Shown: positions 51-60,269 of the stretch, in pieces
How the letters are laid out: every line of letters begins with the position of its first letter
Position numbering within the stretch: position 1 is the first letter of the stretch
Origin: Nanobdellati archaeon
GTDB taxonomy: Archaea > B1Sed10-29 > JAGVWA01
Length of the DNA: 63,527 nt
NCBI GenBank assembly: GCA_018304505.1
Contig: JAGVWA010000005.1
Coordinates: 1-63,527, forward strand
Reading direction: 5' to 3'
Translations under genes and position numbers: made by a program
The notes under the pieces: model-generated
Databases searched by the model: none
The model's input: only the letters and a program-made list of their open reading frames with translations
Told to the model about the DNA's origin: nothing

Positions 51-299
51 TTAATGGTCTAGAGCCCCAATTGCGGAATCGTTTCTAAAAAGCGTTACTG
101 GATTCCATACAGATGACCAGCCTTCACCATTCCTGGTTTTTCTATCCCACTCATCTCCGCGAAGCCGGTACTCTCTACCCCCCCTCAATAAGTGTATGTG
201 GCCGTCTTCACCTGTAAAAACAGGTGGATTGCGACGTGTACTTCCGTTTCGTTCAATGCTATCTCTGCTCACTAATGTTGATTCTGCTGCTTCCCACAT
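51..299 (-). CDS. Small orphan protein, Met-Trp-start family (MW-1)
   Basis: 82-aa ORF MWEAAES...; GGTGA SD and TTTTTATA box upstream; no recognisable domain. Confidence 0.65.
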   Translation of the reverse strand: MWEAAESTLVSRDSIERNGSTRRNPPVFTGEDGHIHLLRGGREYRLRGDEWDRKTRNGEGWSSVWNPVTLFRNDSAIGALDH

Positions 300-351
300 A
301 AAAACTCACCAATAAATTTCTGTCAAAAGAAGTATAAAAACTTTACGTGGC

Positions 352-447
352 TTACACGGGCTCATGATGAACGTGGCCGATGCTCAATTCCTTTAATTGG
401 TCCGCGTGTACTTCGCTAGGCGCGTCAAGCATCGTGTCTTGCGCATT
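352..447 (-). other. aspS: Out-of-frame C-terminal tail of AspRS (NAQDTMLDAPSEVHADQLKELSI...)
   Basis: Alternative frame from 447 to stop at 352 reads like the bacterial AspRS C-terminus (xxAPSEVxxxQLKELxI). Confidence 0.8.
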
Positions 448-1675
448 CCTCGCGCGCCATCAACGCCACAAGCCTGTCTAGTCCGAAGGCGATGCCGCCA
501 TGCGGCGGAGCCCCGTGCTTAAGCGCACTGAGCAGGAAACCGAACTTCTCTTCAGCCTCTTTTTTAGACAAACCCAGGGTTTCCAACACCGACAACTGCA
601 ACTCTGGATCGTGAATCCTGATAGATCCTCCGCCGACCTCCCAGCCATTCAAAACCAAGTCGTAGGCCTTGGATCCCACCAGCTTTGGATTCTTGAAATC
701 AGTAGACGTGGGCATCGTAAACGGATGATGTGCTGCTTTCCACTTCTTGTCTTCATCTGAAAATTCGAACATCGGAAAGTCAGTTACCCAAAGGAACTTG
801 AATTCCTCTGGAGACTTTCTCAGGTCCGGCTTGTCAGTCTTGTATTTTTCGAAAGCTTCCCGATATGTCATCTTCTCAAATGGGATTTTCACATCAACGC
901 CGAGGCACTCCTTGAATAAGTGCTTCATTAGCCGCTCGTTCAATTCAATCAGGTCTTGTTGTTCCACAAAGCTCATTTCAAGATCAATTTGCGTGAATTC
1001 AGGCTGCCTGTCAGACCTTAAGTCCTCATCCCTGAAGCAGCGCACGATTTGGAAGTACTTGTCGTATCCTGAGATCATGAGCAGCTGCTTGAACAACTGC
1101 GGAGATTGGGGTAAAGCGTAGAACTTTTTCTTGTTCACGCGGCTCGGCACAAGGTAATCCCTGGCGCCTTCTGGCGTGGACTTGGCAAGAAAAGGCGTTT
1201 CGATTTCCAGGAAGCCTTCCTTGTCAAGGAAATCACGAGCTGCTTTTGTGACTTTGTGGCGCAGCTTTAGGTTGTTCTGCATCCTGGGTCGACGTAGGTC
1301 GATGTAGCGGTACTTCATCCTGTTTTCTTCTGTCGACTCAATTTTCTCATCCAATGAAATCGGCAGCTCTGAGGCCTTGTTTAACAATTCGATTTTCTCT
1401 GCCGAGACTTCGATGTCGCCCGTGTCAAGCTTGGGGTTGCCTTTGGGTTTCACCTTTACCACACCCGGGACTTTGATAACCGACTCCTTAGTTAGGTCTC
1501 TGACGCTATCTAGCAAATTCTGGGGAACGAAAACCTGCGTAGTGCCGTACCTGTCCCTGAGGTCGATGAAGGCCATCTTTGACTGAATTCTGATTGAGTC
1601 GAGCCATCCGCACAAGATGACATGTTCACCTTGGTTCTCCTTCCTGAGCTCGTTGCAAGTATGAGTGCGCATCAT
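425..1675 (-). CDS. aspS: Aspartyl-tRNA synthetase, bacterial type, no GAD insertion; frameshifted near C-terminus
   Basis: MRTHTCNEL start, OB-fold, motif 1 EIETPFL-STPEGARDYLVPSR, motif 2 FRDEDLRSDRQPEFTQIDLE, motif 3 PPHGGIAFGLDRL. Confidence 0.93.
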   Translation of the reverse strand: MMRTHTCNELRKENQGEHVILCGWLDSIRIQSKMAFIDLRDRYGTTQVFVPQNLLDSVRDLTKESVIKVPGVVKVKPKGNPKLDTGDIEVSAEKIELLNKASELPISLDEKIESTEENRMKYRYIDLRRPRMQNNLKLRHKVTKAARDFLDKEGFLEIETPFLAKSTPEGARDYLVPSRVNKKKFYALPQSPQLFKQLLMISGYDKYFQIVRCFRDEDLRSDRQPEFTQIDLEMSFVEQQDLIELNERLMKHLFKECLGVDVKIPFEKMTYREAFEKYKTDKPDLRKSPEEFKFLWVTDFPMFEFSDEDKKWKAAHHPFTMPTSTDFKNPKLVGSKAYDLVLNGWEVGGGSIRIHDPELQLSVLETLGLSKKEAEEKFGFLLSALKHGAPPHGGIAFGLDRLVALMAREECARHDA

Positions 1676-1732
1676 AATACTCGCTATGCTTATGCCATTT
1701 TGGTGTTTTAAAGCCTATCTATGATTCCCGCG

Positions 1733-1755
1733 GATTGCAAAATCTATAAATACTA
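1733..1755 (+). promoter_or_regulatory. BRE/TATA promoter upstream of MW-2
   Basis: GATTGCAAAATCTATAAATACT. Confidence 0.6.
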
Positions 1756-1785
1756 CAGTTGCGCAATTATATTGGGGTGATTTGG

Positions 1786-2127
1786 GTGTGGGATAAGGTT
1801 CCACAAACTATCGAGCAAGTCAACGAAAATAAAACACGCACAGTGGAAACGCTTTTTGCTAACACATACCTGCTTGACGACGGCACCGTGCTGCAGGAAC
1901 ACTTCGATGACATGCATGACGGCAATGGCTTCATGAGCGGACCATACCGGCTTACTGGAGGCACGCTAAACACAAATGAGGATGCCCAACGGCTCATAAG
2001 CCGAGCCATAACTTTGAAGGCAGAAGAACTCCAGCGGCTCGAGTCCAAAATCGACTCGCTGCAGAATGAAAGTTCCGGCATTCAAGACACCTTAACAAGG
2101 TTAGGGGACTTCGGAGAAACGCAATAA
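1786..2127 (+). CDS. Small orphan protein, Met-Trp-start family (MW-2, MWDK subfamily)
   Basis: GTG-TGG start at 1786 after GGGGTGA SD; 113 aa; paralogous to 2839..3189; C-terminal coiled coil. Confidence 0.75.
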   Translation: MWDKVPQTIEQVNENKTRTVETLFANTYLLDDGTVLQEHFDDMHDGNGFMSGPYRLTGGTLNTNEDAQRLISRAITLKAEELQRLESKIDSLQNESSGIQDTLTRLGDFGETQ

Positions 2128-2174
2128 ACCAGCGTTGGTTTAAACCCACGGGTGTTGCAAAATCGATAAATACT
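2126..2174 (+). promoter_or_regulatory. Extended promoter element AAACC-N5-TGGTTTAAAC-N8-GTTGCAAAATCGATA plus TATA
   Basis: Same motif and spacing recur at 34248..34294. Confidence 0.6.
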
Positions 2175-2197
2175 AAGTCGGACATAAATGAAAGCAC

Positions 2198-2838: not shown

Positions 2839-3189
2839 ATGTGGGATAAAATACCACTAACAGCCAACAGGGCTGTTGAAATGCAGCAAACATCACAAGG
2901 CAGGCTACCCGGCGATGGGTTCAGATACCTTATGCCAGACGGAAGTGTGCTAGAGCAACACGTCGAGGACGCGTCATTGACAAGCTGGGACGAACGGCTC
3001 TTTGTAGCCTCAGGAACATTACACACCGACGAGGGTGCAGCGGCAATAAAAGGAAGAGCGCTACAAGCAGCCAAAGAAGTGCTTGCAATAGAAGAATCAA
3101 CCCTAGCGAATGAACGCGCCGCGATATCAAGCACCGAGGCAAGGATTTCAGAAACGCGTGACATGCTAGCGAAACTAAGCGATCTGTAG
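2839..3189 (+). CDS. Small orphan protein, Met-Trp-start family (MW-3, MWDK subfamily)
   Basis: 116 aa; GGGGGTGA SD; shares MWDKxP, YLxxDGxVL and GTLxTxE with MW-2. Confidence 0.78.
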   Translation: MWDKIPLTANRAVEMQQTSQGRLPGDGFRYLMPDGSVLEQHVEDASLTSWDERLFVASGTLHTDEGAAAIKGRALQAAKEVLAIEESTLANERAAISSTEARISETRDMLAKLSDL

Positions 3190-3257: not shown

Positions 3258-3545
3258 ATGAAGTATGCATCGGGTGTTGTAATGGCTGGCACAGCGGTAA
3301 TCGGGGAACGGGGACAAGTGACGATCCCCAAAAACATTAGAGACCACCTTGGCCTAAAACCACATGACCCCCTCACTATAGAAATGGAAAATGACAAGGT
3401 AGTTATTGAAAAACCCATAAGCAAAAAAGAAACTGAACGGCTAATCAAGGAATACTACTCGGAGCACTACGATTTTGAAAAGAAAGTGGCCAAGGAATGG
3501 GCCCACGTAAGTAAAGAAGCAGATGCGATGCTCGATGAATATTAA
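3258..3545 (+). CDS. mazE: AbrB/MazE/SpoVT-family antitoxin
   Basis: IGERGQVTIPKNIRDHLGL swapped-hairpin motif; overlaps downstream toxin. Confidence 0.85.
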   Translation: MKYASGVVMAGTAVIGERGQVTIPKNIRDHLGLKPHDPLTIEMENDKVVIEKPISKKETERLIKEYYSEHYDFEKKVAKEWAHVSKEADAMLDEY

Positions 3546-3882
3546 AAGGGGTGACATTTATCTAGCTAGCCTAGAACCGGTTCTTGGTTCAGAACAAGGA
3601 AAAACAAGGCCATGCCTCATAGTACAAAACGATGTGTCAAACAAATACAGCCCCACCACCATAATTGCTCCATTGACCTCTTCTCTGCCTCGCAAGGAGT
3701 ACCCCACATTGGCTATTGTCACCCATGAAGAATCGGGCTTAGAAAAAACAAGCGCTGTACTATGCTCTCAGATCAGAACAATTTCCATGGAAGATCGGAT
3801 AATAAAAAAACTGGGCGCCCTAAAACCAGGAGCGATGAGACGGGTTGATGAAGCACTTCGAATCAGCCTGCAATTAAACTGA
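3535..3882 (+). CDS. mazF: MazF/PemK-family endoribonuclease toxin
   Basis: KRGDIYLASLEPVLGSEQGKTRPCLIVQND, SQIRTIS. Confidence 0.93.
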   Translation: MNIKRGDIYLASLEPVLGSEQGKTRPCLIVQNDVSNKYSPTTIIAPLTSSLPRKEYPTLAIVTHEESGLEKTSAVLCSQIRTISMEDRIIKKLGALKPGAMRRVDEALRISLQLN

Positions 3883-4378: not shown

Positions 4379-4627
4379 CTAAACAGCGTCATCGCTCTCT
4401 GCTACCTGTGATGCGCGACTGGCCTCAAGGTCATGCAGCCTGCCAAGGTCATCAAGATCGCGCCCAGTAACCTGCACAACGTGATTGTCAGTGACCTGGA
4501 AAGCACAGTCGCCGTCTTTGCTAATGACATACTCAATACCGCCAATTGTGCGGGTCTGGCCCTCCGCAAGCTGCTTCCTGAACACGCGTTCTGCTTCAGT
4601 TCTTTCAAATGTATGCACGGCCCACAT
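4379..4627 (-). CDS. Small orphan protein, Met-Trp-start family (MW-4)
   Basis: 82 aa MWAVHTF...; strong GGAGGTGA SD. Confidence 0.72.
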   Translation of the reverse strand: MWAVHTFERTEAERVFRKQLAEGQTRTIGGIEYVISKDGDCAFQVTDNHVVQVTGRDLDDLGRLHDLEASRASQVAESDDAV

Positions 4628-4658
4628 TCACCACTCACCTCCAATTTCTGCAGATGCA

Positions 4659-4904
4659 TCACTCAACCCACATGGTGTCAAGATTATGGCCATTGATCCT
4701 CTCAAGGTTGTCCCACAATCCATTGAGCCCCCTGATTTGCCTGCGGGCCATGTCCTGTTCCGCGTCAGAACCACCTGCAGCGTCTTTCCTGAGTACTTCC
4801 AAGGTCCTGTTGAACTCCGCACGGGCACCCGGAACATTCCGACCACGATGCAAGTGCCTGATTTTCTCAAGCGACGAAGTCCACGCTTCTGATTGCATCC
4901 ACAT
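4659..4904 (-). CDS. Small orphan protein, Met-Trp-start family (MW-5)
   Basis: 81 aa from internal ATG-TGG (MWMQSEA...), ends in MWVE; co-oriented with MW-4 and MW-6. Confidence 0.62.
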   Translation of the reverse strand: MWMQSEAWTSSLEKIRHLHRGRNVPGARAEFNRTLEVLRKDAAGGSDAEQDMARRQIRGLNGLWDNLERINGHNLDTMWVE

Positions 4905-5015: not shown

Positions 5016-5291
5016 TTACTTATCCCCGTTGAGGATATCAAGCACCTCGACCTTCAAGCGCTCGCCCTCGTCAAATGTCTGCGAGTAATCCATGATGTAC
5101 TGTGCATCATCTAAGACGAGCCTCAGCAAGCCGCGCCTGTCGCTTTCAAACGTTGCACACTGCGACATTTCAAGCCCAATTCTGGCGCTCAGTAATGAAT
5201 CTTTCAAAAAACCGTCATTGCCGGCCCTAAGCCATGCTGTCACCTTCTCGGCGTCATCCAATGCCTTAAACGCGCCATCATAGCTCCACAT
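5016..5291 (-). CDS. Small orphan protein, Met-Trp-start family (MW-6)
   Basis: 91 aa from ATG-TGG (MWSYDGA...); GAGGT SD, CTTTATAT box upstream. Confidence 0.68.
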   Translation of the reverse strand: MWSYDGAFKALDDAEKVTAWLRAGNDGFLKDSLLSARIGLEMSQCATFESDRRGLLRLVLDDAQYIMDYSQTFDEGERLKVEVLDILNGDK

Positions 5292-12771: not shown

Positions 12772-13983
12772 ATGACAAACTACAAACCCACAATTCTAAA
12801 GCACGCGCTAAAGAACGCAGTAGAGCATGATGGGAAAGCACAGCAGGGAGCTGTAATAAACAAGGTCATCGGCGAGCACCCTGAGGCAAAAAGCGACATG
12901 GCGAACCTCGGAAAACAAACAGCAGAGGTCGTGAACGAAATCAATGCAATGACACAAGATCATCAGAAAGCCGAGTTACTGAGCCTGTGGCCCAACGCGC
13001 TGGAGAAGAAACCCGAACCAGAAAGGCAACTAAAGCCCCTGCCAGGGAACACAAGCCACGTCGTGGTGAGGTTCGCGCCAAACCCAAACGGGCCGCTGAC
13101 ACTTGGTGGCTCGCGCGTGCTGATTCTGAATGATGAGTACGCAAAGAAATACAACGGCACACTTCATTTAAGATTCGACGACACAGACCCACAGAACAAA
13201 AAACCACTGCCTGAAGCCTATACCTGGATACAGGAAGAAGCAAAATGGCTCGGCTGCAACGTTTCAAAAGTATACATTGCGTCAGACCACATGGAAGACT
13301 ACTACAAGATAGCCGAGCAGCTGCTCGAAAAAGGCGACATGTACATATGCACATGCCCCGCAGAAGAATTCAGCGAATTGAAAAACAACGGCAAGGCGTG
13401 CCCCTGTAGGCCTAATTCGATAGCCGCCAACAAGGCGCTTTGGAAACAAATGCACTCAGGCGAGGCTAAAAAGGGCGCGGCGGTGGCGAGGATAAAGACA
13501 GACATAAAGCTGAAAAACAACGCACTGCGCGACTGGCCAGCGTTCAGGATCGCGACAGAGCCGCACCCGCGCACGGGAACTAAGTACCGCGTGTGGCCAA
13601 TGCTTGATTTTGCAGGCGCAGTGCTCGACAAAATGAACGGGATTACACACATCATCAGGGGCAAGGACTTAATGAGCAGCACAGACCGGCAGACTATAAT
13701 GTACAAAATGCTTGGCTGGGCGTATCCTGAAACCATGTACGTCGGCCGCGTGGCGATTCACGAGTTCGGCAGGCTCAGTACAAGCGAAATCAAGCAGGGC
13801 ATTGCTGACGGCCGATTTACAGGCTGGGACGATCCCCGGCTGCCAACGCTGCAAGCACTCATCAAAGCTGGAGAAATAAAACCAGAAGCCCTAAGGGAAT
13901 TCTGGCTCGAATTCGGCATCAGCGAACGCGACATAAGTGCAGACCTGCAGATCCTGGAATCGATAAACAGGAAGCTGACCTAA
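12772..13983 (+). CDS. gltX: Glutamyl-tRNA synthetase, archaeal type, catalytic core only (about 403 aa)
   Basis: VRFAPNPNGPLTLG, RFDDTDP, CxC zinc region, VWPMLDF, THIIRGKD, LSTS, GWDDPRLPTL; stops after INRKLT. Confidence 0.9.
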   Translation: MTNYKPTILKHALKNAVEHDGKAQQGAVINKVIGEHPEAKSDMANLGKQTAEVVNEINAMTQDHQKAELLSLWPNALEKKPEPERQLKPLPGNTSHVVVRFAPNPNGPLTLGGSRVLILNDEYAKKYNGTLHLRFDDTDPQNKKPLPEAYTWIQEEAKWLGCNVSKVYIASDHMEDYYKIAEQLLEKGDMYICTCPAEEFSELKNNGKACPCRPNSIAANKALWKQMHSGEAKKGAAVARIKTDIKLKNNALRDWPAFRIATEPHPRTGTKYRVWPMLDFAGAVLDKMNGITHIIRGKDLMSSTDRQTIMYKMLGWAYPETMYVGRVAIHEFGRLSTSEIKQGIADGRFTGWDDPRLPTLQALIKAGEIKPEALREFWLEFGISERDISADLQILESINRKLT

Positions 13984-14156
13984 ATACCATCAAGCTTGTT
14001 GAGTAATTCCCCAACTTCACGATATGCAGCCGTGTCAACGGGGTTTCCCCAAAGGATCTCAAGATGTGTTCGCTGGACCTGATCCTGTAAAGCCCCCCGG
14101 ACATCTTCCGCAACGCGTTTTGCCTCCGTAAACTGCTGTTTATTCCCGTTCCACAC
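13980..14156 (-). CDS. Small orphan protein, Met-Trp-start family (MW-7)
   Basis: GTG-TGG start after GGGGGTGA SD; 58 aa MWNGNKQ...; stop overlaps the gltX stop. Confidence 0.62.
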   Translation of the reverse strand: MWNGNKQQFTEAKRVAEDVRGALQDQVQRTHLEILWGNPVDTAAYREVGELLNKLDGI

Positions 14157-46512: not shown

Positions 46513-47370
46513 ATGAAGGACAACCTCATCGAAGAAATACTACACAAGATCGGCATCGGGAAGGCCACAAAAAAGGAAACTGAGCAGCTTACGCTTGTTT
46601 ATGGACTCCCGACAAAAATAATGAGGCAGAGAAAAAAACTCAGAATGTCGCGGCGTGAACTCGCCAACAAGATCGGCACACTAGAAAGCGTAATAAGGGG
46701 GCTGGAGGAAGCACGTATAATCCCCGAAAAAGACGCAGTCCTAGACCTAGAAAAAGCCCTGGGAATTCCGCTCTACACCGAACACAAGCACGTCATACAG
46801 AAAATGAAAAGGCACCATGCGAAAGTCCAAAAGAAAATCCTAACCACCAAATACATGGACAAGCTCGAAACCAAGTTCTTTCCCAAAATCCGGGAAAAAT
46901 ACAAGGAAAAAGCCCGCCGGGCAAACACCCGTACCAAGACAGAGCCAACCAAAAAAACTGAAAAGAAAAAAACCCCAGCAAGAAAGGGCACAGCAAAACG
47001 GGCCAAACCGAAATCCCTGGCAGTCAAAAAAACTACACGCAAAAAACGAGTGCCTCACGCGCCCGCACCGAAACAGAACGCAGACATACAAAAGAAGCTC
47101 ATAAAAGGCATTCATGACACACTCGACATGCTGGCTGAACGCAACGCCGCAACTTCTTTAAAAAACGTGGCTTCTGCACTCGATGTCACTCAACAAGAAG
47201 TGATAGAAGAAATTGGGAACGTCATAACGCAAGATGACTTTAAAATGCCAAAAGGAACCAGCATCCTAATCGAAGGACCCATAGAATCACAAAAAGAAAC
47301 CTTCACACAAGAAATCATACAACACCACCTAGCCCGTAATAAACCGATTTTTGTCAGGCGAAGAACGTGA
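46513..47370 (+). CDS. XRE/MBF1-like HTH, Lys-rich linker and start of a degenerate KaiC-like domain (fragment 1)
   Basis: RQRKKLRMSRRELANKIGTLESVIRGLEE; SILIEGPIESQKET pseudo-Walker A; frame breaks at about 47352. Confidence 0.7.
   Translation: MKDNLIEEILHKIGIGKATKKETEQLTLVYGLPTKIMRQRKKLRMSRRELANKIGTLESVIRGLEEARIIPEKDAVLDLEKALGIPLYTEHKHVIQKMKRHHAKVQKKILTTKYMDKLETKFFPKIREKYKEKARRANTRTKTEPTKKTEKKKTPARKGTAKRAKPKSLAVKKTTRKKRVPHAPAPKQNADIQKKLIKGIHDTLDMLAERNAATSLKNVASALDVTQQEVIEEIGNVITQDDFKMPKGTSILIEGPIESQKETFTQEIIQHHLARNKPIFVRRRT
47236..47334 (+). repeat. 99-bp block identical to 47951..48049
   Basis: GACTTTAAAATGCC...CACCACCTAGCC compared directly. Confidence 0.92.
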
Positions 47371-48109
47371 TGAAGCAGTCCGATTCATTAGCGCGAACAT
47401 CGACAAAATGAAAAGGAAAAACACAACGTCAATATTTTTGCTCCATTCCTCGATCGTTGACTCCAGACAACTAGCGTCAATAGAAACGCTTTTCGACGCA
47501 GTCATAACTTTCGAAACAAAACAGAATACGCGCGGCGAAGTCGAAAGCTACTACAAAATCAAAAGATTCAAAGGCCTAAACATCAAACCCCAACTGAAAA
47601 AATACAAGCCGCGGATTCTGCAAAAACAGACCGAACAAAAAATGCAGGAAACACCGCACGAAAATATTGTAACCCCCCCCAAACCGATTCAGAAAGCACG
47701 AGAAAAAGCGCCTCCACTAGAGATCCCCATACAAAGTTACACGTCCGGGGGAATACCAAAAGACATACCAAACGGCCTACAATCAGTTGATGACCAAGTC
47801 AGGGAAATACGCCAAGAAATCAGGGAAGAAAAACTCGTCGGCAACATAGACAAACTCCTCTCCGTCCTATCCCAAAAATCAGAAATCAACCTCAGCAAGA
47901 GCACGGAACAGGAGATCGTTGAGGAAATCGGAAACCTGATAACGCAAGACGACTTTAAAATGCCAAAAGGAACCAGCATCCTAATCGAAGGACCCATAGA
48001 ATCACAAAAAGAAACCTTCACACAAGAAATCATACAACACCACCTAGCCAAACCGAAACGTACAACATCAAAGACAACGGTCTCGTGCTGGCCCCCGCAG
48101 GCGAGATAA
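47351..48109 (+). pseudogene. Fragment 2 of the frameshifted tandem KaiC-like gene (end of copy 1, start of copy 2)
   Basis: SIETLFDAVITF...YKIKRFKG then a second EGPIESQKET; frame breaks again at about 48052; may be an assembly artefact. Confidence 0.65.
47529..47612 (+). repeat. 84-bp block identical to 48365..48448
   Basis: CGCGCGGCGAAGTCG...TACAAGCCGC compared directly. Confidence 0.92.
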
Positions 48110-48822
48110 ACGAAACTAACCTGACAATATCAGAGCAAGTCTCTGAAGACCCTGTGCTCTTAGTGGCGAACGTTCTCAACGTCTTGCTCCCTAAGTACAA
48201 CATAGAGGAAATAACAAAATTCACGTCCTACAACTTAAGCAAGCTAAAAAAGTCCGCGATAACTTCCATCTTCACCCTAGATGACGAAATAACTTCGGTA
48301 GGCGAAAAGAGCGCACTCGAGACCTTGTTTGATGCGATCATCAGCTTCGAAACAAAACAAAATGCGCGCGGCGAAGTCGAAAGCTACTACAAAATCAAAA
48401 GATTCAAAGGCCTAAACATCAAACCCCAACTGAAAAAATACAAGCCGCAAACCCATATGGCCAAGACTAAAAAGGACGCCGAAAAACCACTAGAAGCCCC
48501 TTTAGTTGTTGAGGGCCTCGCGCCAGAATCAGCATCGATATCCCCAACACTCATGATGAAACTTCCGGCAAAAATCAGGAAAGAACCAGAAGAAAAAAAG
48601 CAATACCCGCAGGAAGTAGAAACAATTAAAATAACAACCGGGTTAGACCAACTATACCAGGTTATCCGAGACAAAAAGACAATCAGGATAGACGCCGCAG
48701 CAAAGGCACTGCAAGTTGATGAGGGCACGATCGAAACCTGGGCAAACATACTGGAAAAGCAAAACCTCGTCAAAATAAGGTACCCATCGTTTGGGAAAAC
48801 TATAATAAGCGTGATAAGATGA
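48055..48822 (+). pseudogene. Fragment 3: end of KaiC-like copy 2 plus C-terminal winged helix
   Basis: ALETLFDAIISF; TGLDQLYQVIRDKKTIRIDAAAKALQV...WANILEKQNLVKIRYP. Confidence 0.65.
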
Positions 48823-50378
48823 CTGTAATAGATGCATATGAAATACAAGATGGTGAACTAAAAAGCCGCGTAGAGATAACAGAAAACGAGGACTTCGTAA
48901 AACGATACAATCTATCGGCCCTCCGGATCGACATCGGAACCAGGGCCCTGCTTGACGAAATTAAGGGAGAACTCATCTCTACCGTAACGTTGCAATCCGT
49001 AGAAATAATAGATCCAAACAAGCTGCAGGAAATCAAAAACAAATTCTATGACCAAATAGTCGCAATGCTGCAGCGAAAGGTCCCGGGCCTTCCAGAAAAA
49101 GAAACGTCCCTCCTTGTACGCTTCTTGCTCAATGAAATGCTCGGCCTCGGAGAACTGGAACTCCTACTGAAAGATGACTACCTCGAAGACATCGCCATAA
49201 ATACCTCCACAGAGCCCGTCTGGGCATACCACAGAAAACACGGCTGGCTCAAGACCAACATTGTGGTGCCTACTGAAGAGGACATCAAAAACTATGCAGG
49301 CATAATCGCTAGACGAGTAGGCAGGCAGATCACGAACCTCAACCCCTTGTTAGATGCTCATTTAGTGACACAGGAAAGGGCCAACGCCGTCCTTAACCCT
49401 ATTTCGAGCAAGGGCAACCTAATCACCATTAGGAAGTTCGCAAAGGAACCATGGACAATAACAGACTTCATTAACAACCGTACGCTGAATTCAGAAGTAG
49501 CAGCACTCCTATGGCAGGCAATCCAATACGAACTCAACATACTCGTCAGTGGAGGCACGGGCTCTGGAAAGACGTCAATGCTCAGCGTACTGTTGCCATT
49601 CATTCAGCCAAACCAACGCATCGTTTCAATTGAAGACACACGCGAAATCCAGCTGCCAAAATTCCTGTTCTGGTCGCCACTAACGACAAGGCCACCGAAT
49701 ATTGACAAGCGCGGCGAGATCACGATGCTTGACTTAATGATCAACTCCCTTAGAATGCGGCCAGACAGGATCGTTGTTGGAGAAATAAGAAGAGAACGGG
49801 AAGCAGAAACACTGTTCGAGGCCATGCATACTGGCCACGCGGTATACGCCACACTGCACGCAGACACCATAGACCAAACAATAAATCGGCTGAAGAACCC
49901 ACCAATCAATATACACCCCTCGCTCCTTGGTGCCATCGACCTAAACCTTGTCATGTTCAGGGACAGGCGAAGCGGCATACGCAGACTGCTACAACTCGGC
50001 ACTTACAACGTTTCTGAAAGAACCGACGTATCACAAGTGAGGGCCAATGTGCTGTACAAATGGAATCCAACAGACGATGCACTTGAACCCACAATAAAAG
50101 CAAAATCAACAGCCATACAAAACAAAATCAGGACATATACAAGCCTGACAGAACAAGAGCTTAACGACGACCTAGCGCAAAAACAGGCGATCCTCAACTG
50201 GCTAGTGAAAAACAACACGCGAAAAGTGGATGACATTGGAAGGCTAATAGCGGAGTATTATCTGGACCCCTCCGTAATCGAAACAGCTGCAAACAAAAAT
50301 AAGCCCCCTGAAGAGCTCTTGACACAAACTGGCAGAGTGGAGACTGGAGAAAAGCCCATGGGAGCGAAGAAGAAATGA
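48819..50378 (+). CDS. Type IV pilus / secretion ATPase (VirB11/CpaF/ArlI family)
   Basis: LEDIAIN, TIRKF, SGGTGSGKT, IEDTREI, SLRMRPDRIVVGEIR, TGHAVYATLHAD. Confidence 0.95.
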   Translation: MTVIDAYEIQDGELKSRVEITENEDFVKRYNLSALRIDIGTRALLDEIKGELISTVTLQSVEIIDPNKLQEIKNKFYDQIVAMLQRKVPGLPEKETSLLVRFLLNEMLGLGELELLLKDDYLEDIAINTSTEPVWAYHRKHGWLKTNIVVPTEEDIKNYAGIIARRVGRQITNLNPLLDAHLVTQERANAVLNPISSKGNLITIRKFAKEPWTITDFINNRTLNSEVAALLWQAIQYELNILVSGGTGSGKTSMLSVLLPFIQPNQRIVSIEDTREIQLPKFLFWSPLTTRPPNIDKRGEITMLDLMINSLRMRPDRIVVGEIRREREAETLFEAMHTGHAVYATLHADTIDQTINRLKNPPINIHPSLLGAIDLNLVMFRDRRSGIRRLLQLGTYNVSERTDVSQVRANVLYKWNPTDDALEPTIKAKSTAIQNKIRTYTSLTEQELNDDLAQKQAILNWLVKNNTRKVDDIGRLIAEYYLDPSVIETAANKNKPPEELLTQTGRVETGEKPMGAKKK

Positions 50379-51256
50379 TAATGATTCCATTCCTGCCGCT
50401 GCCATACAAGGTAACATTGGAACTCTCCAGGTTCCTGAGGCCAGCAGCGCAACGAATAGCATTTCTTTTTCCGGGCCTCGGAATGCAACTCAAACAAGCC
50501 GAGGTCGACATTCCAGCAACATCGTACCTGTCGATCGTTGTGTTCTCGTTCAGTGCCTTTAGCATTTTCTTTGCCGCTTTTTTTCTCCTGGTAGGATACT
50601 TCGCAGCATCACGCCAACTCTTACAACTGAGCCCACTGCTCGGTATAGGCATAGGCATTCTTGTGAGCCTCCAGCAGCTCGCATATCCCAAGATAATCAT
50701 TATACGCAAAGGACGCGGTGTTGACAGGAACTTAGTGTTTGCGCTGCGCAACCTGCTAATACAAATGAAGAGCGGCGTGCCCATGTTCGACGGCATCAAT
50801 GACATTGCAAAAGCAGACCACGGAGAACTATCAACAGAATTCGCCAAAGCTGTAAAAAAAATCGCTACTGGGGAACCCCCAGAAATGGTTTTTGAAGACC
50901 TAAGCAAAAACAACCCAAGTCCTTATTTGAGAAAGGTGCTGTGGCAACTATCAGACAGCCTCAAATCAGGCGGCGACATAACAACAACACTAGAGGAGAT
51001 AGTCGATAACCTGACAAAAGAACAATCAATACAAGTGAAAAAGTTTTCGTCTGTGCTAAACCCGATTATACTGATGTACATGATGATCGCCGTCATCGTC
51101 CCCTCCCTTGGAGTGAGCTTCCTTGTTGTGTTTTCCAGCTTTCCCGCCCTGAACATCACGGAATTCACGTTCACGGTACTCCTAGGCGTCATTACATTAA
51201 TTCAATTCATGTTCCTCGGTTCAGTGAGGTCGGCCACGCCGAAACTGTTAAGGTGA
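50375..51256 (+). CDS. T2SS-F/TadB-like pilus membrane platform protein
   Basis: T2SSF pattern (IQMKSGVP, GELSTEF, SLKSGGD) with TM helices. Confidence 0.9.
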   Translation: MIMIPFLPLPYKVTLELSRFLRPAAQRIAFLFPGLGMQLKQAEVDIPATSYLSIVVFSFSAFSIFFAAFFLLVGYFAASRQLLQLSPLLGIGIGILVSLQQLAYPKIIIIRKGRGVDRNLVFALRNLLIQMKSGVPMFDGINDIAKADHGELSTEFAKAVKKIATGEPPEMVFEDLSKNNPSPYLRKVLWQLSDSLKSGGDITTTLEEIVDNLTKEQSIQVKKFSSVLNPIILMYMMIAVIVPSLGVSFLVVFSSFPALNITEFTFTVLLGVITLIQFMFLGSVRSATPKLLR

Positions 51257-52230
51257 AACCAATGGATGTATTCGAAAAAATCGGGAGCATTTTCCCTGGA
51301 AAACTCAAGGACCTTTACGCCTTAAACCTCAAGCAGTCATACATCAAAAGCACCGCCGAAAAATACCTGGGAATCTCAATTGTGGGCAGCATTGGGCTCA
51401 CCGCAATCGTGACAGCATACCTCAGCCTGTTCAGCACACTAACGATTTACCACGCACTCGGCGCATTCCTTGTAATGAACGGCGTGTTCTACTTCAACCT
51501 CTCATTGTCAGTCGACAAGAAAACGCGCGACGTAAACACGTCTCTCCCGGACGCACTGCAGCTCATGGCAACCAACCTGCGGGCAGGCTTTACACCTGAC
51601 AAGGCCCTGTTCCTCAGCGCAAAAGAAGAATTTGGGCCACTGGAAGAAATCCTAAAGCAAGCTGGCAAAGAAATCTTGTCGGGGACAACAATGGAAGCGG
51701 CACTTAAAAATATGAACAACCAAGTAAGCTCTGAAAAGCTTGAAACGGTAACGCAACTAATAACGCAAGGCATCAAAGCAGGCGGAGAACTTTCAGAACT
51801 CCTAGACCATACAGCGATTGACATACAAGACGAAGCAATACGTGAAAAAGAACTCAAGGCAAGCATACTGCTCTACAGCATACTTATTTTTATTGCCATC
51901 GCGTTTGGAGGCCCATTCCTGTTTGGTGTCTCTTCATTACTGACACAAACACTAAAAGGCCTCCTAGGAACACCACAAGGGCCAGCAGTTATTTCCAATC
52001 TCCCTGTGAGCATGGGCGAGATAAAAATATCAGAGCAATTCATGCTCGACTTTTCAATAGCCGCCCTGCTGATAAGTTCAATATCAGGCAGCCTCATCAT
52101 TGGGCTTATACAAGGCGGCAAAGAAAAGCAGGGCCTGAAACTCCTCCCAATCATTTTGGCCATTTCCATGATAGTTTTCTATGGAACCCGCGTTTTACTA
52201 GCAGGCATGCTTAGCAATGTGTTTGCATAA
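51253..52230 (+). CDS. T2SS-F/TadC-like pilus membrane platform protein
   Basis: LPDALQLMATNLRAGFTP, EFGPL, GIKAGGEL. Confidence 0.92.
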   Translation: MKPMDVFEKIGSIFPGKLKDLYALNLKQSYIKSTAEKYLGISIVGSIGLTAIVTAYLSLFSTLTIYHALGAFLVMNGVFYFNLSLSVDKKTRDVNTSLPDALQLMATNLRAGFTPDKALFLSAKEEFGPLEEILKQAGKEILSGTTMEAALKNMNNQVSSEKLETVTQLITQGIKAGGELSELLDHTAIDIQDEAIREKELKASILLYSILIFIAIAFGGPFLFGVSSLLTQTLKGLLGTPQGPAVISNLPVSMGEIKISEQFMLDFSIAALLISSISGSLIIGLIQGGKEKQGLKLLPIILAISMIVFYGTRVLLAGMLSNVFA

Positions 52231-52309
52231 CTCGTTGCAAAACCCGTCTCCAGCACAAAAACTGGCAAACCTTTATAAATAGACCCTGAATGAGTAATAA
52301 CGTGAGTAT

Positions 52310-52762
52310 ATGAAGGGACAGAGTGCACTAGAGTACCTAACAACCTATGGCTGGGCAATAGGTATAATAGTGATTGTCGTAGCAGCAATGTTCGCACTAG
52401 GCATCCTGAACCCAAGCACCTACACCAGTGACTCTTGTGTCGGTTTCGGCAAGCTGCCTTACCAGGAACACAAGGTAGACACAGATGGCATACTGACGCT
52501 GGTGCTCAAAAACGGGGTCGGCAGAAGCATATCAATAACAACAATGACAGTTACGCCGCAAGGTGGAACAGAGCAAACAGTGTTTACTAGCAACACGACC
52601 GTAGCACCACTAGCAGACATAACACTGGTAGCAGAAACAGGCGCAACAGGCTGGACAGGCACTGCTGGCGAAGCATACCAAGGAACAGTATCCGTGCTCT
52701 ACGACACAGCATCAATAACGGCAAACAGGGAAAGCGGCAGTTGCACAGGCGCGCTAGAATAA
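52310..52762 (+). CDS. Major-type class III pilin
   Basis: MKG/QSALEYLTTYGWAI...LGILNP; own TATA box upstream. Confidence 0.9.
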   Translation: MKGQSALEYLTTYGWAIGIIVIVVAAMFALGILNPSTYTSDSCVGFGKLPYQEHKVDTDGILTLVLKNGVGRSISITTMTVTPQGGTEQTVFTSNTTVAPLADITLVAETGATGWTGTAGEAYQGTVSVLYDTASITANRESGSCTGALE

Positions 52763-54034: not shown

Positions 54035-54928
54035 ATGGAAGATCTGCAATACTACATAGATGACCCGTTCACATTCTCGGGTAAACAAGACCTCTTTAGC
54101 GAAGCCAAAGTAGTTTTCTTTGGGGTTCCGCTGGACGTAACCGCGAGTTTCAAAAAGGGCACGCATCAAGGCCCCAACGCGATCCGCGAAGCAAGCAAGG
54201 AAATCGAGTCATATAATCAAATGACTGAACGCGATCCCGTCGAAGAAACCAAGATTCACGACCTGGGCAACCTGTGGATTACTCCAGGCAACCTAAAGGA
54301 AACACTAGATAGGATAAAAGGCTTCACAAGCAAACTACTAGCGAAAAACAAAATCCCGTTCATGCTCGGCGGAGAACACACCTCTTCACTGCCAGTCATC
54401 AAGGCACTGCACGAAAAACACCCTGACTTGGTTGTGGTGCACTTCGATGCGCACGCCGACCTCAAAGACGAGTACAAGGGCGACAAAACAATGCACGCGA
54501 GCTTTATGCGCCGCGTTCTGGAGTTTCTTCCAAAAGACCAACTTATGCAGATAGGTGTCCGATCCTTAGACACGGAAGAAAATGAATTCATTAAATCAAA
54601 TGACATAAACACATTTTTCATCGACGTGGCCAAGCAAACAGACCTCGACACGCTGCTAGATGAAGTAAAGCGCGATGTAGAGGGATTCACGCAAAACAAG
54701 CCAACATACATCACGTTCGACATCGACTGCCTAGATGCATCGATTGCGCCAGGAACAGGAACGCCAGAACCCAACGGTTTAACCTATAATCAAGCAGCAG
54801 GCTTGATAAAATCAATCAGGGGCAACGTTGTCGGGTGCGACATGATGGAAGTCTGCCGCGATAAAGAAATGCTGACGCCGACCGTCGCCACGAAACTCAT
54901 TTTCAAAATGCTCGAGCTGATAAAATGA
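54035..54928 (+). CDS. speB: Agmatinase
   Basis: GGEHT, FDAHADL, FDIDCLD, APGTGTPEPNG. Confidence 0.94.
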   Translation: MEDLQYYIDDPFTFSGKQDLFSEAKVVFFGVPLDVTASFKKGTHQGPNAIREASKEIESYNQMTERDPVEETKIHDLGNLWITPGNLKETLDRIKGFTSKLLAKNKIPFMLGGEHTSSLPVIKALHEKHPDLVVVHFDAHADLKDEYKGDKTMHASFMRRVLEFLPKDQLMQIGVRSLDTEENEFIKSNDINTFFIDVAKQTDLDTLLDEVKRDVEGFTQNKPTYITFDIDCLDASIAPGTGTPEPNGLTYNQAAGLIKSIRGNVVGCDMMEVCRDKEMLTPTVATKLIFKMLELIK

Positions 54929-55467
54929 TCACTGGCACGAAAGTCAACATGCGGCGTGTCGAAGAGCGCGACATCCCAACAGTGACGAACTGGCTCAACG
55001 ACCCAGGGTTTACTGGGCCGCATGCTGATTTTCCGACGCAGATTACGGAATTAGATTTGGCGAAACGCGTCTTGGGCCCTGTCAATGTCCTGGAGTGGAC
55101 CGACTACGTAATCGAAAACCAAAACCGCGAGGCTGTGGGCTGGGCATGCCATTACATCGACTCCTTGAATTTTAACTGGCACGAAATCGCATACGCAGTC
55201 CTGCCAAAGCACAGAAAACAGGGTTACGCGACAGAAGCGGCTCAGCTCTTAATTGATTATTTGTTCATGACAAAGGACATTCCCAGGATACAAGCGAAAA
55301 CCAACTCCACAAATGACTGGTCAATAAAGGTTTTGGAAAACGCTAACATGAAACGCGAAGGCGCACTAAGGAAAGCGATTTGGGTAAAGCCGGGCAAGTG
55401 GGCAGATGGCCTGATTTACGGAATTACCCGGGAAGACTGGGCAAAGCCACGACTTCTAAAAGCTTAA
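54925..55467 (+). CDS. RimJ/RimL-family GNAT acetyltransferase
   Basis: EIAYAV...RKQGYATEA, NDWSIKVLE. Confidence 0.9.
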   Translation: MITGTKVNMRRVEERDIPTVTNWLNDPGFTGPHADFPTQITELDLAKRVLGPVNVLEWTDYVIENQNREAVGWACHYIDSLNFNWHEIAYAVLPKHRKQGYATEAAQLLIDYLFMTKDIPRIQAKTNSTNDWSIKVLENANMKREGALRKAIWVKPGKWADGLIYGITREDWAKPRLLKA

Positions 55468-55780
55468 GAAATAAACCCGCAGGGGTTGCAAAAGCATTAA
55501 ATACATTGTTTACCATAAGCATATGCGAGTGCGCGTTGTCATCTATCCTGTCATGCTGATAACCGGCACGCTGCGGCACTAATTCACGAAGCTTATTGAT
55601 GATGTCCTGCTTCAAGCCGGGCTCGTCTTCATTGATAATGATTCCGGTAGTGGCGTGCGGCGTGAAAACATTCACTAGGCCATTTTTTATTTTTGATTCA
55701 GTTAAGTGCTTTTGAATCTCAGCCGTGATGTTAACAAGCTCAAGGTGCTCCGTTGTATACAATTTGATAGTTTGTGCCAT
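55424..55780 (-). pseudogene. yjbQ: YjbQ/UPF0047-family protein, truncated after NAHSH
   Basis: LVNIT, PHATTGIIINEDEPGL, HDRIDDNAHSH; the family LGTWQ-containing C-terminus is absent. Confidence 0.75.
55472..55503 (+). promoter_or_regulatory. Orphan promoter (TAAAC-N8-GTTGCAAAA plus TTAAATA) with no downstream + strand gene
   Basis: Matches the element at 2141..2174. Confidence 0.5.
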
Positions 55781-57836: not shown

Positions 57837-58232
57837 TCAGTTGACGACGCTAACTAAACCATTAAAACCAGCGTCGTATGTCATTATATGAGTTATTCCG
57901 TGGTTTTCCATGAGCGCTATATTTGTGCAGTCTGTAAAACTTAGCTTCTTGTGTTTCTTGAAGAGTTTCCAAGATTTTTCAAACGTCTCAGAGTCTACAA
58001 ATATCATCTCAAGTTTATCTAGAATTTTTTGGCCAAAGGCCGTTATCTTCTCATGATTCTTAAAACGTCGAAATGCGAAAGTCACGGTCTCATCAAAAAT
58101 ATAGTCTGAAACAAAAACTGCGCCGAATTTACCGCCCAAGACCTCTTTCATTTTCTCATAAACTGTCGCGTGTGATTTCTCCTCCTTACTGAGATATGCG
58201 ATAAAGGCAGATGTGTCAATCAAAATAGACAT
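57837..58232 (-). CDS. vapC: VapC PIN-domain toxin
   Basis: ILIDTSAF, DET, LSFTDC, TYD. Confidence 0.92.
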   Translation of the reverse strand: MSILIDTSAFIAYLSKEEKSHATVYEKMKEVLGGKFGAVFVSDYIFDETVTFAFRRFKNHEKITAFGQKILDKLEMIFVDSETFEKSWKLFKKHKKLSFTDCTNIALMENHGITHIMTYDAGFNGLVSVVN

Positions 58233-58235
58233 TTT

Positions 58236-58478
58236 TCATCCCTCATAAAGGACTTTGTCTATCTCAGATATTGCGTCTGTAGAACCGATATGAAAATTTA
58301 TGGGCTTAAACTCAAGAAATTCTTTTGGATTCTTACGCGGTTTTTCTTCCTTCGCCCATTTTTCGAGCGCTCTGTTTACGGCGATTCCTAAACTAATCCC
58401 CAACTCAGCACTTCTTGCCTTGGCCATCATATACACACCCGTTTCTATTCCGCGAATGCACACTGTTGTACTTGTCAT
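58236..58478 (-). CDS. vapB: Putative VapB antitoxin (RHH-like)
   Basis: Small ORF immediately upstream of VapC; IRGI...AVNRALEKW. Confidence 0.75.
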   Translation of the reverse strand: MTSTTVCIRGIETGVYMMAKARSAELGISLGIAVNRALEKWAKEEKPRKNPKEFLEFKPINFHIGSTDAISEIDKVLYEG

Positions 58479-58534: not shown

Positions 58535-58666
58535 TTAAGCCGTCACTTGCATGACGTGCTTTGGAACAACTAGGTCTGTTGAGAGGAAGGCGAAGTGCTT
58601 TCTCTCGATCTTGAGGTTCCAGTCCAAGCCCCTGGCTTGCTCAATTAGGTCTTTTAGTCTCATCAT
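58535..58666 (-). CDS. 43-aa hypothetical peptide (below ORF-track cutoff)
   Basis: MMRLKDLIEQARGLDWNLKIERKHFAFLSTDLVVPKHVMQVTA; TATAAA and GGACGTGA upstream, poly-T after stop. Confidence 0.5.
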   Translation of the reverse strand: MMRLKDLIEQARGLDWNLKIERKHFAFLSTDLVVPKHVMQVTA

Positions 58667-58724
58667 TTTTGTTCACGTCCTGACCAATGTATGTTTATAG
58701 TGGTTTTGTAGTGATCATGGTGGC

Positions 58725-58765
58725 TGCATGACAAGCCCCCCTTGGCCGAGGGGGCTTGTTATGCA
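58725..58765. other. Strong 41-nt GC-rich hairpin
   Basis: TGCATGACAAGCCCC...GGGGCTTGTTATGCA. Confidence 0.75.
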
Positions 58766-59023
58766 TTAAACTACGAGCTCAAATAACGCAGGGGTTTTTG
58801 TGCTCAGTGCGAATTTTCTGGAGGAAACGGAGGTGACGTTCCTATCACTACTTACCGTACGTTTGTTTATATACCAAAACTAGTAAGCAACTTTCCGAGA
58901 ACTTCCCGGGTAACGGTTTTTGCTTTCCGAGAATTTAGGTACTCACTGAAATCACAAAGTACGAGCGCCCATGTTTGGAATTAAAACCGGAACTTGACTG
59001 CACTCAACACGAAGTAACGGGGT

Positions 59024-59311
59024 TCAGATTTCGTCAGGATCAACGAAATCGTCATCGAGATTTTTGGCTGCGCATTCAAAATCATGGCGCTGCAATCCAG
59101 CGTCGTCAATTCTTCCCGCGAGATAATGCACTAGCCCGTCTCTTCTAACTTCTCTTGCCCTGCCGATCATTGATTCCCTGCGGTCGATTTCCTTGTCAAT
59201 GTTATCCATCGCGGCACTGAGTAGTTTCCTTGCCAATTCCTGGTGGCCTGTTTCGGACAGTAGTTCTGCGGCCCCCATCACTGAATCTGCACAATCGCTG
59301 TTCATCCACAT
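59024..59311 (-). CDS. Small orphan protein, Met-Trp-start family (MW-12)
   Basis: 95 aa MWMNSDC...; GGAGGT SD; similar N-terminal helices to MW-13. Confidence 0.75.
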   Translation of the reverse strand: MWMNSDCADSVMGAAELLSETGHQELARKLLSAAMDNIDKEIDRRESMIGRAREVRRDGLVHYLAGRIDDAGLQRHDFECAAKNLDDDFVDPDEI

Positions 59312-59327
59312 AACAAAACCTCCAAAG

Positions 59328-59582
59328 TTACTTTTTTAATTGCTGAGCAAGTTCGTTTGACTGTGCAGCCAACTGCTCCTGCTGTTGCCAGCATTCTCCT
59401 GCTTTTGCCATGTCTCCCATGGCTTGTGCCAGTGTCTCATCTGTTATCAGGAGCGAGCGCTCTTCAACTATTTGCTCCAGGCCGCCCCAGAGTAATTCAT
59501 GCGCTTCGCTTTTTCCCCCAACTTTCCTGAGTTGTGCTGCTGTTTCTATTATCGCGTCTTTAAAATCATCAGTTATCCACAT
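59328..59582 (-). CDS. Small orphan protein, Met-Trp-start family (MW-13)
   Basis: 84 aa from ATG-TGG at 59582 after GGGGGATG. Confidence 0.72.
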   Translation of the reverse strand: MWITDDFKDAIIETAAQLRKVGGKSEAHELLWGGLEQIVEERSLLITDETLAQAMGDMAKAGECWQQQEQLAAQSNELAQQLKK

Positions 59583-59662
59583 GCGTTCATCCCCCATATG
59601 TATTGTTGCCATAACGTTTGGGCAATGAAGTATAAAAAACATCTGTATGCACCTTGGGTTGC

Positions 59663-60064
59663 CTATTCATCCCAGCTTACCGTGCCTGTTTTTGGTTTGG
59701 TTGGGTCTGTAGATGCGGTTGGGTGTGCCACGGGAATGGCTGGTTTTGAGGCCTCCCTTGTAGGCGCCTCAGGCACATGCTCCTCTGCAAGTGTTTTCGG
59801 TAATGTGTCAAGGTCCTCGAGCTCCTTGATGGCGAGTTTACCCAGGTTACGGAAGCGCTGTCTTTTGCTGTTCAATACTGCACCTTCGAGAAATCGCGAG
59901 GCTCCATAGACGTCAATTGTTGCTGTGTGCGCTACACCACGCTCTTGCTCAACTCCACCGAGGTGGTTCCAGGCCTGCTGCAGGTTTTGCCTTGCAACTG
60001 GCTCTACAAGCAGCATGGCACCCATTTTTCTCATCGCCACCTTGGCTTCCTCAACGCTCCACAT
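59663..60064 (-). CDS. Small orphan protein, Met-Trp-start family (MW-14)
   Basis: 133 aa MWSVEEA...; Pro/Thr-rich tail ending SWDE. Confidence 0.7.
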   Translation of the reverse strand: MWSVEEAKVAMRKMGAMLLVEPVARQNLQQAWNHLGGVEQERGVAHTATIDVYGASRFLEGAVLNSKRQRFRNLGKLAIKELEDLDTLPKTLAEEHVPEAPTREASKPAIPVAHPTASTDPTKPKTGTVSWDE

Positions 60065-60269
60065 ATTCATCAATGTTCCACATGTTCTTATCACACCATT
60101 ATGCCACTTCTATTTTCCGCGTCCTGCGCTCACACACGAACATATTTGCATTTTGGATGTATTTAAAGCTTCACACGAATTCACCAAGCCTGGTTTGAAC
60201 TGGTTTGAACAAGTTGCAACCAGCTAACGTTGCAAAATTGACTTAAATGCACTTCGCTATAACTATAAC

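Follow-up and report, generated by a model that had tools for sequence, protein, structure and literature searches.

Why do fourteen small genes, most of them unrelated to one another, begin with the same two residues, Met and Trp, on a single stretch of archaeal DNA? The stretch, contig JAGVWA010000005.1 of the Nanobdellati archaeon assembly GCA_018304505.1, is 63,527 nt long with a GC content of 47% and is called the window in the following. A first-pass annotation had listed 14 open reading frames (ORFs) with this Met-Trp (MW) start and proposed residue 2 as a feature common to proteins that are otherwise diverse, a description that fits the data presented here. The window also encodes an aIF5B-like protein, aIF2-gamma, a wyosine-synthesis radical-SAM enzyme, an Lhr helicase, ribosomal proteins, enolase and a type IV pilus-like ATPase locus. 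The best relatives of a conserved 279-aa protein (32939-33778) were found in Woesearchaeota/Nanoarchaeota metagenome-assembled genomes (MAGs) and are at most 61% identical, so the source is a DPANN archaeon without close sequenced relatives and, judged by its genes, a Woesearchaeota-like one. The DNA of the window recurs at 99.4-100% identity in independent assemblies of several metagenomes, among them SRR3989338, SRR2090155 and the ANAN16 ENA assemblies. A large proportion of the genes of DPANN archaea have no known function.

Tryptophan at the second codon of fourteen small genes

All 14 ORFs, numbered 1 to 14 from left to right, translate with a Met-Trp start, 12 from ATG-TGG and two (1786 and 13980) from GTG-TGG, and 12 of them were found on the minus strand, opposite most housekeeping genes, as had been reported. 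The enrichment was counted over ATG and GTG starts with 55 or more open codons behind them, comparing the gaps with the interior of confident genes. TGG was the second codon of 13 of the 149 such starts in the gaps versus 7 of the 1,007 within confident genes (Fisher p = 2.6e-9). These seven include the two MW paralogs and one false start, which leaves about 4 in 1,004 elsewhere. The hexamer ATGTGG is not generally over-represented: the minus strand holds 26 copies against 17-21 expected, 11 of the 26 are MW starts, and outside MW starts the hexamer occurs at expectation. Trp accounts for 0.7% of the residues in housekeeping proteins and for about 1.3% in the MW proteins, Trp2 left out. With the 1.3% as background, 14 occurrences of Trp2 among 14-25 small orphans correspond to a binomial p <= 1e-20. 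The earlier statement that no recognisable housekeeping gene has an MW start was borne out for every gene in the window with a recognisable domain, and the genes that start otherwise include small minus-strand thioredoxin-like, rubredoxin-like, cupredoxin, PIN, RHH and UPF0047 genes.

A check of Trp2 in related genomes, proposed along with the original list, was run in part. Through the conserved 279-aa protein, 59 related Woesearchaeota loci (525 kb) were retrieved, and they do not show the bias. Among long-ORF starts supported by a Shine-Dalgarno (SD) sequence, TGG was the second codon in 9 of 90 in the window versus 2 of 433 in the relatives (p = 3.8e-6), and five further relative loci contained no TGG-second starts. 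As far as these sequences reach, the Trp2 bias is specific to this lineage and absent from the related archaea compared.

Two further ORFs with a possible MW start were considered. The one at 32915-33778 (+), which encodes the conserved 279-aa protein and is wHTH/PLD-like, was rejected as a fifteenth ATG-TGG member, because some 120 homologs have their start at Met9 (32939) and its MW codons are a false start; the public annotation still carries the 287-aa MW form. The other, 35200-35412 (+), encodes a small protein that is rich in Lys and has a membrane anchor at its C-terminus. Its alternative GTG-TGG start (VWSEKDKK..., 70 aa) is chosen by some gene callers instead of the 84-aa TTG form and may be a fifteenth MW start, on a different type of protein.

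Several observations indicate that the 14 ORFs are genes and that their starts are correctly placed. In seven, the MW codon pair is the first start of the ORF, which leaves no choice of start. Upstream alternatives exist for the remaining seven, and for each of these the publicly annotated protein is the MW form; at 5016, 13980 and 59328 at least, the longer alternative would run into a TATA-like box or begin at it. All 14 MW forms are thus present in public annotation. Most starts had been described as preceded by an SD sequence; an SD-like match of 5-8 nt or a G-run was found in about 10 of the 14, and none at 4659 and 59663. Members that stand first in their operon mostly have TATA-like boxes, with at least six of eight consensus positions in 8 of 10. 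The box starts 36-56 nt upstream in seven of them, at -29 in gene 5, at about -62 in gene 11 and at -103 in gene 14, and the leaders between box and start are short and SD-bearing. Within the operon 32807->31822, the inner members begin 0-2 nt past the preceding stop. The claimed frame scored highest of the six in 13 of the 14 cases. The MW coding strands are 59% purine, compared with 57% in real genes of the window, and the purine skew flips in the MW gaps. The proteins are low in Cys and high in Asp/Glu, unlike random or shadow ORFs, and the window is nearly gap-free only when the MW ORFs are counted. On this basis, the 14 ORFs are real genes for small, acidic, soluble, lineage-restricted proteins of the accessory genome.

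The suggestion that ATGTGG is a DNA-level cassette boundary did not hold up, and the MW genes do not fit among gene cassettes or mobile promoter modules with a repeated boundary. No common DNA was found beyond the SD and ATGTGGR, there are no flanking repeats, and two members start with GTG. Across the 14 start regions, the information content of the DNA is limited to the SD and ATG-TGG-purine, and none of the repeat families maps to the ends of MW genes. No common RNA fold was found in these start regions either (z-scores -1.4 to +2.2), and an Rfam scan of the window returned one tRNA and nothing else.

Diverse acidic proteins with one shared residue

The MW proteins were described as acidic and Lys-poor, which the composition supports: they contain 4.1% Lys and 7.5% Arg, compared with 8.8% and 4.3% in housekeeping proteins. 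Positions 3-8 are net-acidic and free of Lys and Arg in all members other than the paralog pair of genes 2 and 3 and gene 7. The N-termini are net acidic in 11 of the 14, and the net charge of residues 1-12 is zero or negative in 13. No hydrophobic segment was detected, the maximum 15-residue Kyte-Doolittle mean ranging from 0.01 to 1.04 across all 14.

Beyond residue 2, the proteins are indeed mostly unrelated, with no detectable homology among the 14 apart from the products of genes 2 and 3. These two align end to end with 33-35% identity (E = 1e-11), and 19 of 35 identical residues other than Met and Trp are encoded by different codons. Such synonymous changes at conserved residues imply selection on the protein. 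The best-conserved segment of the pair is the N-terminus itself, MWDK(V/I)P(Q/L)T, in which 6 of the 8 positions are identical, compared with about 35% identity over the full length. It has been kept despite the GTG/ATG difference in the start codon, and its Lys and Thr codons differ synonymously. With regard to the question of whether homologs keep Trp2, the one detectable paralog pair does, together with the whole MWDK-P-T terminus. An exhaustive HMMER search with the profile of this pair against 1.84 billion representative sequences returned only the two proteins themselves.

For the other 12, orphan status was assessed with profile libraries, with 90% clusters and by tblastn searches of phages, plasmids and 823 kb of sequence from relatives. 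No Pfam family matched any of the 14 proteins at E <= 0.1 or <= 1. Searches of NCBIfam, PADLOC and PHROGs (10 proteins each) and of PDB sequences (gene 14 only) gave nothing at the curated cut-off, the best hit being TIGR02574 for gene 8. The 90%-identity clusters of MW proteins hold sequences of the same organism only, and tblastn against phages, plasmids and the 823 kb of related archaeal contigs gave no match. A viral origin was rejected, as there was no match in IMG/VR (two queries), in phages or in PHROGs. Among the type II antitoxins, no placement was possible, since none of the proteins has an antitoxin domain and the neighbouring MazE/PemK and PIN modules have their own partner genes alongside.

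The proposed division into a beta plus coiled-coil type and an all-helical type finds weak support from models of low confidence. In the AlphaFold2 model of the gene 2 product (pLDDT 63), the C-terminal helix alone is confident, and the model of the gene 13 product (pLDDT 72, pTM 0.36) has helices at residues 5-21, 26-40 and 48-83. Both models, at their low confidence, place residues 1-4 outside the first helix, which would be an exposed position. Foldseek against the PDB gave nothing at E < 6, and no fold was assigned.

How the Met-Trp terminus may be read

Tentatively, we favour the reading that Met-Trp is a protein-level N-terminal handle recognised by a common factor, which would set the fate of these lineage-specific accessory small proteins. 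Methionine aminopeptidase does not cut before bulky residues, and Met1 is therefore presumably retained. The selected N-terminus would then consist of Met1, Trp2 and the net-acidic stretch that follows, with Met-Trp acting at the protein level as a short, exposed hydrophobic handle. One common reader factor would decide the fate of the whole set, and the handle would control turnover or N-terminal modification. For such a role there are eukaryotic models, the Met-hydrophobic N-degrons and the NatC substrates, in which half-life or modification depends on a Met that is kept ahead of a bulky hydrophobic residue (Leu, Ile, Phe, Tyr or Trp) and is recognised together with it as a unit. The MW proteins resemble them in having Met followed by a bulky hydrophobic residue, namely Trp in 14 of 14, with Met retention presumed. 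They differ in being exclusively Trp, whereas the eukaryotic class accepts any bulky hydrophobic residue.

What argues for selection on Trp2 is that it has been kept while the rest of the proteins became unrecognisably different, whether or not they go back to a common ancestor. As no homology is detectable apart from genes 2 and 3, the shared Trp2 is not a by-product of recognisable recent duplication. The conservation of the N-terminal peptide in genes 2 and 3 through codon changes points to the protein level. Three parts of this reading are inferred: selection on the residue and not on the UGG codon, the existence of a reader factor, and the action of that factor.

Against this stand several points. 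The 14 ORFs are recognised as genes by their sequence, the enrichment was counted in 63.5 kb of one genome, and conservation of Trp2 is seen in genes 2 and 3 only, the pair to which the exhaustive homolog search was confined. Trp has a single codon, which makes selection on the residue and on the codon inseparable in the sequence. There is no candidate reader in the window: a RimJ/RimL-type GNAT at 54925-55467 is its only N-acetyltransferase-like gene, and this common housekeeping type proves nothing. To our knowledge, no N-end-rule-like pathway is known in DPANN archaea, and neither are the eukaryotic readers Ubr1 and NatC.

Selection on the codon is a rival to the protein-level handle that we regard as unlikely but worth weighing. 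Here, the UGG directly after the start codon would act on translation, either as a throttle or as a Trp sensor. In the sensor version, a ribosome waiting for Trp-tRNA at codon 2 would block the start site and tie the genes to the Trp supply of an organism that probably relies on a host for its amino acids. Known sensors of this kind, trpL and tnaC, are short leader ORFs in which Trp codons serve as a translation-coupled sensor, working through downstream RNA switches or arrest peptides. The MW Trp codon, in contrast, lies in full-length genes without a shared RNA structure; Trp leader-peptide attenuators were rejected as a class for the MW genes, whose ORFs have 58-133 aa and whose start regions have no common fold. 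In the throttle version, early NGG codons including UGG would cause peptidyl-tRNA drop-off and low output, as has been documented for E. coli, where all NGG codons at positions +2 to +5 reduce expression (references 27-29 cited in PMC12204400). The MW genes share with these E. coli genes a UGG directly after the start codon, in 14 of 14, and combine it with unusually strong SD sequences; the internal Trp content of the MW proteins, about twofold that of the housekeeping proteins, fits as well. However, the effect has been demonstrated only in E. coli, and an NGG effect of a general kind should extend to AGG, CGG and GGG and to positions +3 to +5, neither of which was found. The restriction of the set to UGG at +2, in an archaeon and in a defined gene class, thus argues against a generic early-codon effect, and the lack of an attenuator-like RNA structure speaks against codon-level control. 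In addition, genes 2 and 3 conserve the whole N-terminal peptide as amino acids and not the codon only.

One small ORF bears on this directly. At 60051-60083 (-), 10 codons (MWNIDEYVER, then stop) overlap the start of gene 14 out of frame, with a better SD-like site (GGTGTGAT) than gene 14 has. As this upstream ORF also starts AUG-UGG, it is more readily understood as a device acting on translation than as a tag on a protein. However, it is accounted for by an imperfect 19-nt tandem duplication at 60046-60083 (-), which repeats the first 19 nt of gene 14 with 15 of 19 positions identical and thereby creates the ORF.

Roughly as improbable, in our estimate, is that all 14 genes descend from one old, fast-diverging ancestor by tandem and dispersed duplication, with Trp2 in a structural role, for example as a hydrophobic staple capping the first helix, and neither tag nor reader involved. 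Such a family would explain the three tandem clusters, the common size, charge, Arg-over-Lys composition and regulatory layout, and the one clear pair of genes 2 and 3. It also gains from an in-register similarity of residues 3-22 above shuffled sequences (z = 3.3, p = 0.0005) and from two weak, N-terminally anchored BLAST matches, 59024 with 59328 (E = 3e-4 in a tiny local database) and 31822 with 59663 (E = 0.011). This weak N-terminal similarity is compatible with descent from a very old common ancestor or with a similar composition at helix starts, and the shuffled null disregards the helix-prone composition of the N-termini. However, local alignments of MW proteins with each other score no better (mean z = 0.28) than those with unrelated small proteins (0.18), and hhalign probabilities between MW proteins stay below 1%. 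The placement of residues 1-4 outside helices in the two low-confidence models does not favour a helix cap, and residue 2 as the sole invariant site of a family would itself demand a special role.

A signal for export or delivery, by which Met-Trp would send effectors aimed at a host into secretion or into transfer from cell to cell, appears less probable still. In its favour, most members of this archaeal group probably depend on a host, and the window has a type IV pilus-like locus at 48819-52762. Oomycete RXLR and Plasmodium PEXEL proteins are effector sets defined by a short N-terminal motif. The same holds for the Y/F/WxC effector candidates of powdery mildews (PMC2886064), and the MW set has in common with such repertoires that many lineage-specific, small and mutually unrelated orphans share few N-terminal residues, including an aromatic one. 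However, the motifs of those repertoires follow a cleavable Sec signal peptide and are eukaryotic and tied to secretion, whereas MW constitutes residues 1-2 of signal-less, acidic and apparently cytoplasmic proteins. None of the 14 has a positive N-terminus followed by a hydrophobic stretch of 10-20 residues; with the maximum mean hydrophobicity of 1.04 and the acidic N-termini in 11 of 14, Sec, Tat and class III (pilin) substrates were excluded. The link to the pilus-like locus drawn in the first-pass annotation falls with this, as the substrates of such a locus need a class III signal peptide that includes a hydrophobic segment, and no MW protein has one. No secretion-associated gene lies beside the MW clusters, their neighbours being tRNA synthetase, ribosomal, redox and toxin-antitoxin genes. 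We know of no archaeal secretion route that reads a two-residue N-terminus. Turnover or modification is favoured over export as the function of the handle, since the MW genes are associated with neither export features nor export machinery.

WXG100/ESX proteins are similar to the MW proteins in being about 100 aa long, acidic, helical and tandem-encoded with a conserved Trp. They differ in that the Trp of the MW proteins is at residue 2 and not in the central hairpin turn, that no type VII secretion genes are present and that the organism is an archaeon. No profile match was obtained in Pfam, and only the product of gene 13 has a WGG (residues 31-33), which its low-confidence model places within helix 2 and not in a turn; this class was therefore rejected.

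Finally, it is very improbable that there is no biological signal at all and that the set consists of non-genes (shadow ORFs or non-coding gaps), a DNA-level ATGTGG site or a chance or selection artefact: the low codon-usage scores of these orphans, the upstream start alternatives for seven and the doubtful ORF 4659-4904 would suit it, but it is opposed by the strong enrichment statistics, the seven starts without a choice, the public annotation of all 14 MW forms, the best frame in 13 of 14, the 59% purine strands, the synonymous changes in genes 2 and 3, a window nearly gap-free only with the MW ORFs, and ATGTGG at expectation elsewhere without an extended motif or repeat.

The literature searched contained no account of Trp at residue 2 as a signature of orphan genes, and we rate the signature as outside the known kinds, with one 63.5-kb window of one uncultivated organism as its support. 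One easily scored feature singles out a class of small, acidic orphan accessory proteins, and the shared Trp2 implies a common handling step, be it stability, modification, sorting or translational control, so that hypothetical proteins become a regulon or a set of substrates that can be tested. At a constant density of 14 per 63 kb, the whole genome would possibly contain more than 100 MW genes. If the protein-level handle is correct and the residue is what is read, it would represent a new minimal N-terminal code in archaea. A wider version of that handle, which we consider possible though doubtful, would make Met-Trp a proteome-level address label on a large, rapidly evolving orphan set, with a dedicated reader leading to conditional degradation, modification or host transfer; if true, this would be a two-residue sorting or stability code undescribed in archaea or bacteria. 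If instead the codon is read, a new Trp-linked translational control in a likely auxotroph would result.

The MW loci and their surroundings

The MW genes occupy six loci between housekeeping operons. Three of the loci are three-gene clusters, and two adjoin toxin-antitoxin modules. Modules of this type flanking MW clusters are a MazE/PemK pair, a PIN gene with a small upstream partner and a PIN gene beside a convergent RHH gene (3258-3882, 57837-58478 and 60270-60935), and they mark the gaps as accessory islands. The strain contigs, 99.4-100% identical, differ by only 6 single-nucleotide polymorphisms inside MW genes; the counts outside MW genes are apparently distorted by repeat misalignment.

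Gene 1 (51-299, -; 82 aa, MWEAAEST...) is monocistronic and lies downstream of a class II Asp/Asn/Lys-type tRNA synthetase gene. Its MW codons are the first start of the ORF, with a TATA-like box at -41 and a GGTGA SD, and the exact protein is annotated on 6 public contigs. Among the best relatives of the synthetase (425-1675, -) are many from bacterial MAGs (45-55% identity) and one from a Woesearchaeota MAG (58%), which hints at a bacterial-type enzyme or a transfer; public callers use a 452-aa form, longer than the 416-aa ORF listed.

The paralogs lie on the plus strand. Gene 2 (1786-2127, +; 113 aa, MWDKVPQT...) has a GTG start with a GGTGAT SD 4 nt upstream, and the NCBI annotation is the MW form. 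Gene 3 (2839-3189, +; 116 aa, MWDKIPLT...) begins at the first start of its ORF behind an GGGGGTGA SD. A module of about 48 nt is repeated at 2125-2172, 34247-34294 and 55456-55503, and also at about 1745-1765. It consists of a short hairpin, AAACCnnnnnTGGTTT, followed by GGTTGCAAAATCGATAAATA, and looks like a terminator joined to a strong B recognition element (BRE)/TATA promoter that is reused before several plus-strand genes and gene 2. Nearby, tandem repeats of 33/42 nt (2508-2689, +) lie within an acylphosphatase/coiled-coil gene (2198-2770), in which the strain contigs vary by indels that give products of 165, 176 or 190 aa.

The cluster 5291->4379 begins with gene 6 (5016-5291, -; 91 aa), which has a GAGGT SD and a TATA-like box at -36; the promoter would fall inside the longer GTG form, and NCBI annotates the MW form. 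Gene 5 (4659-4904, -; 81 aa) is the weakest member, having no SD and ambiguous frame scores and being called by few annotators. The last of the three, gene 4 (4379-4627, -; 82 aa), starts at the first start of its ORF, has an 8-nt SD, GGAGGTGA, 7 nt upstream and is annotated on 5 contigs.

Gene 7 (13980-14156, -; 58 aa) has a GTG start, an GGGGGTGA SD and a TATA-like box at -40/-42. It is annotated on 6 contigs and is the sole member whose frame is not top-scoring. The product of gene 8 (23970-24176, -; 68 aa) is very acidic (net -16), and its resemblance to the addiction-module component family TIGR02574 is sub-threshold (E = 0.03, 14 bits against a cut-off of 32).

The operon 32807->31552 comprises four genes. 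The first, gene 11 (32457-32807, -; 116 aa), uses the first start of its ORF behind an AGGAGG SD, and the second, gene 10 (32149-32454, -; 101 aa), also uses its first start, 2 nt past the stop of gene 11. In the third, gene 9 (31822-32148, -; 108 aa), the ATG is again the first start and abuts the TGA of gene 10, so that the GGAGGTG SD lies within gene 10; the identical protein is found on 12 contigs from several samples. The fourth gene (31552-31791, -) encodes a basic (net +15), Ala/Arg-rich orphan of 79 aa that starts MV, and the accessory set is thus not exclusively MW. Its composition is unusual for a Lys-rich genome, and the protein may partner the three acidic MW proteins encoded in the operon.

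The cluster 60064->59024 starts with gene 14 (59663-60064, -; 133 aa), which has no SD of its own and a perfect TATA box, TTTAAATA, at -103; here too, NCBI annotates the MW form. Gene 13 (59328-59582, -; 84 aa), with three predicted helices, has GGGGGATGA upstream and a TATA-like box at -56, and gene 12 (59024-59311, -; 95 aa), the last of the cluster, uses its first start behind a GGAGGT SD. Downstream of gene 12, 357 nt (58667-59023) hold no convincing ORF; they contain a GC-rich hairpin, GACAAGCCCCCC...GGGGGCTTGT, which has no Rfam match.

In other assemblies, the leftward extension of the window holds a ribosomal-protein operon only and no MW genes, and to the right the assemblies stop at the same repeat region. 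This right end (62196-63527, +) consists of 96-nt tandem repeats in four or five copies, at which the other assemblies break. In those assemblies, a gene of 458 aa or more is called there on the plus strand, and the long minus-strand ORF at 61913-63196 (-) is probably a shadow. At 47187-48448 (+) in the pilus-like locus, two neighbouring genes (47351-48109 and 48085-48822) have segments in common, 148 nt and 135 nt long and about 90% identical, which indicates a recent tandem duplication.

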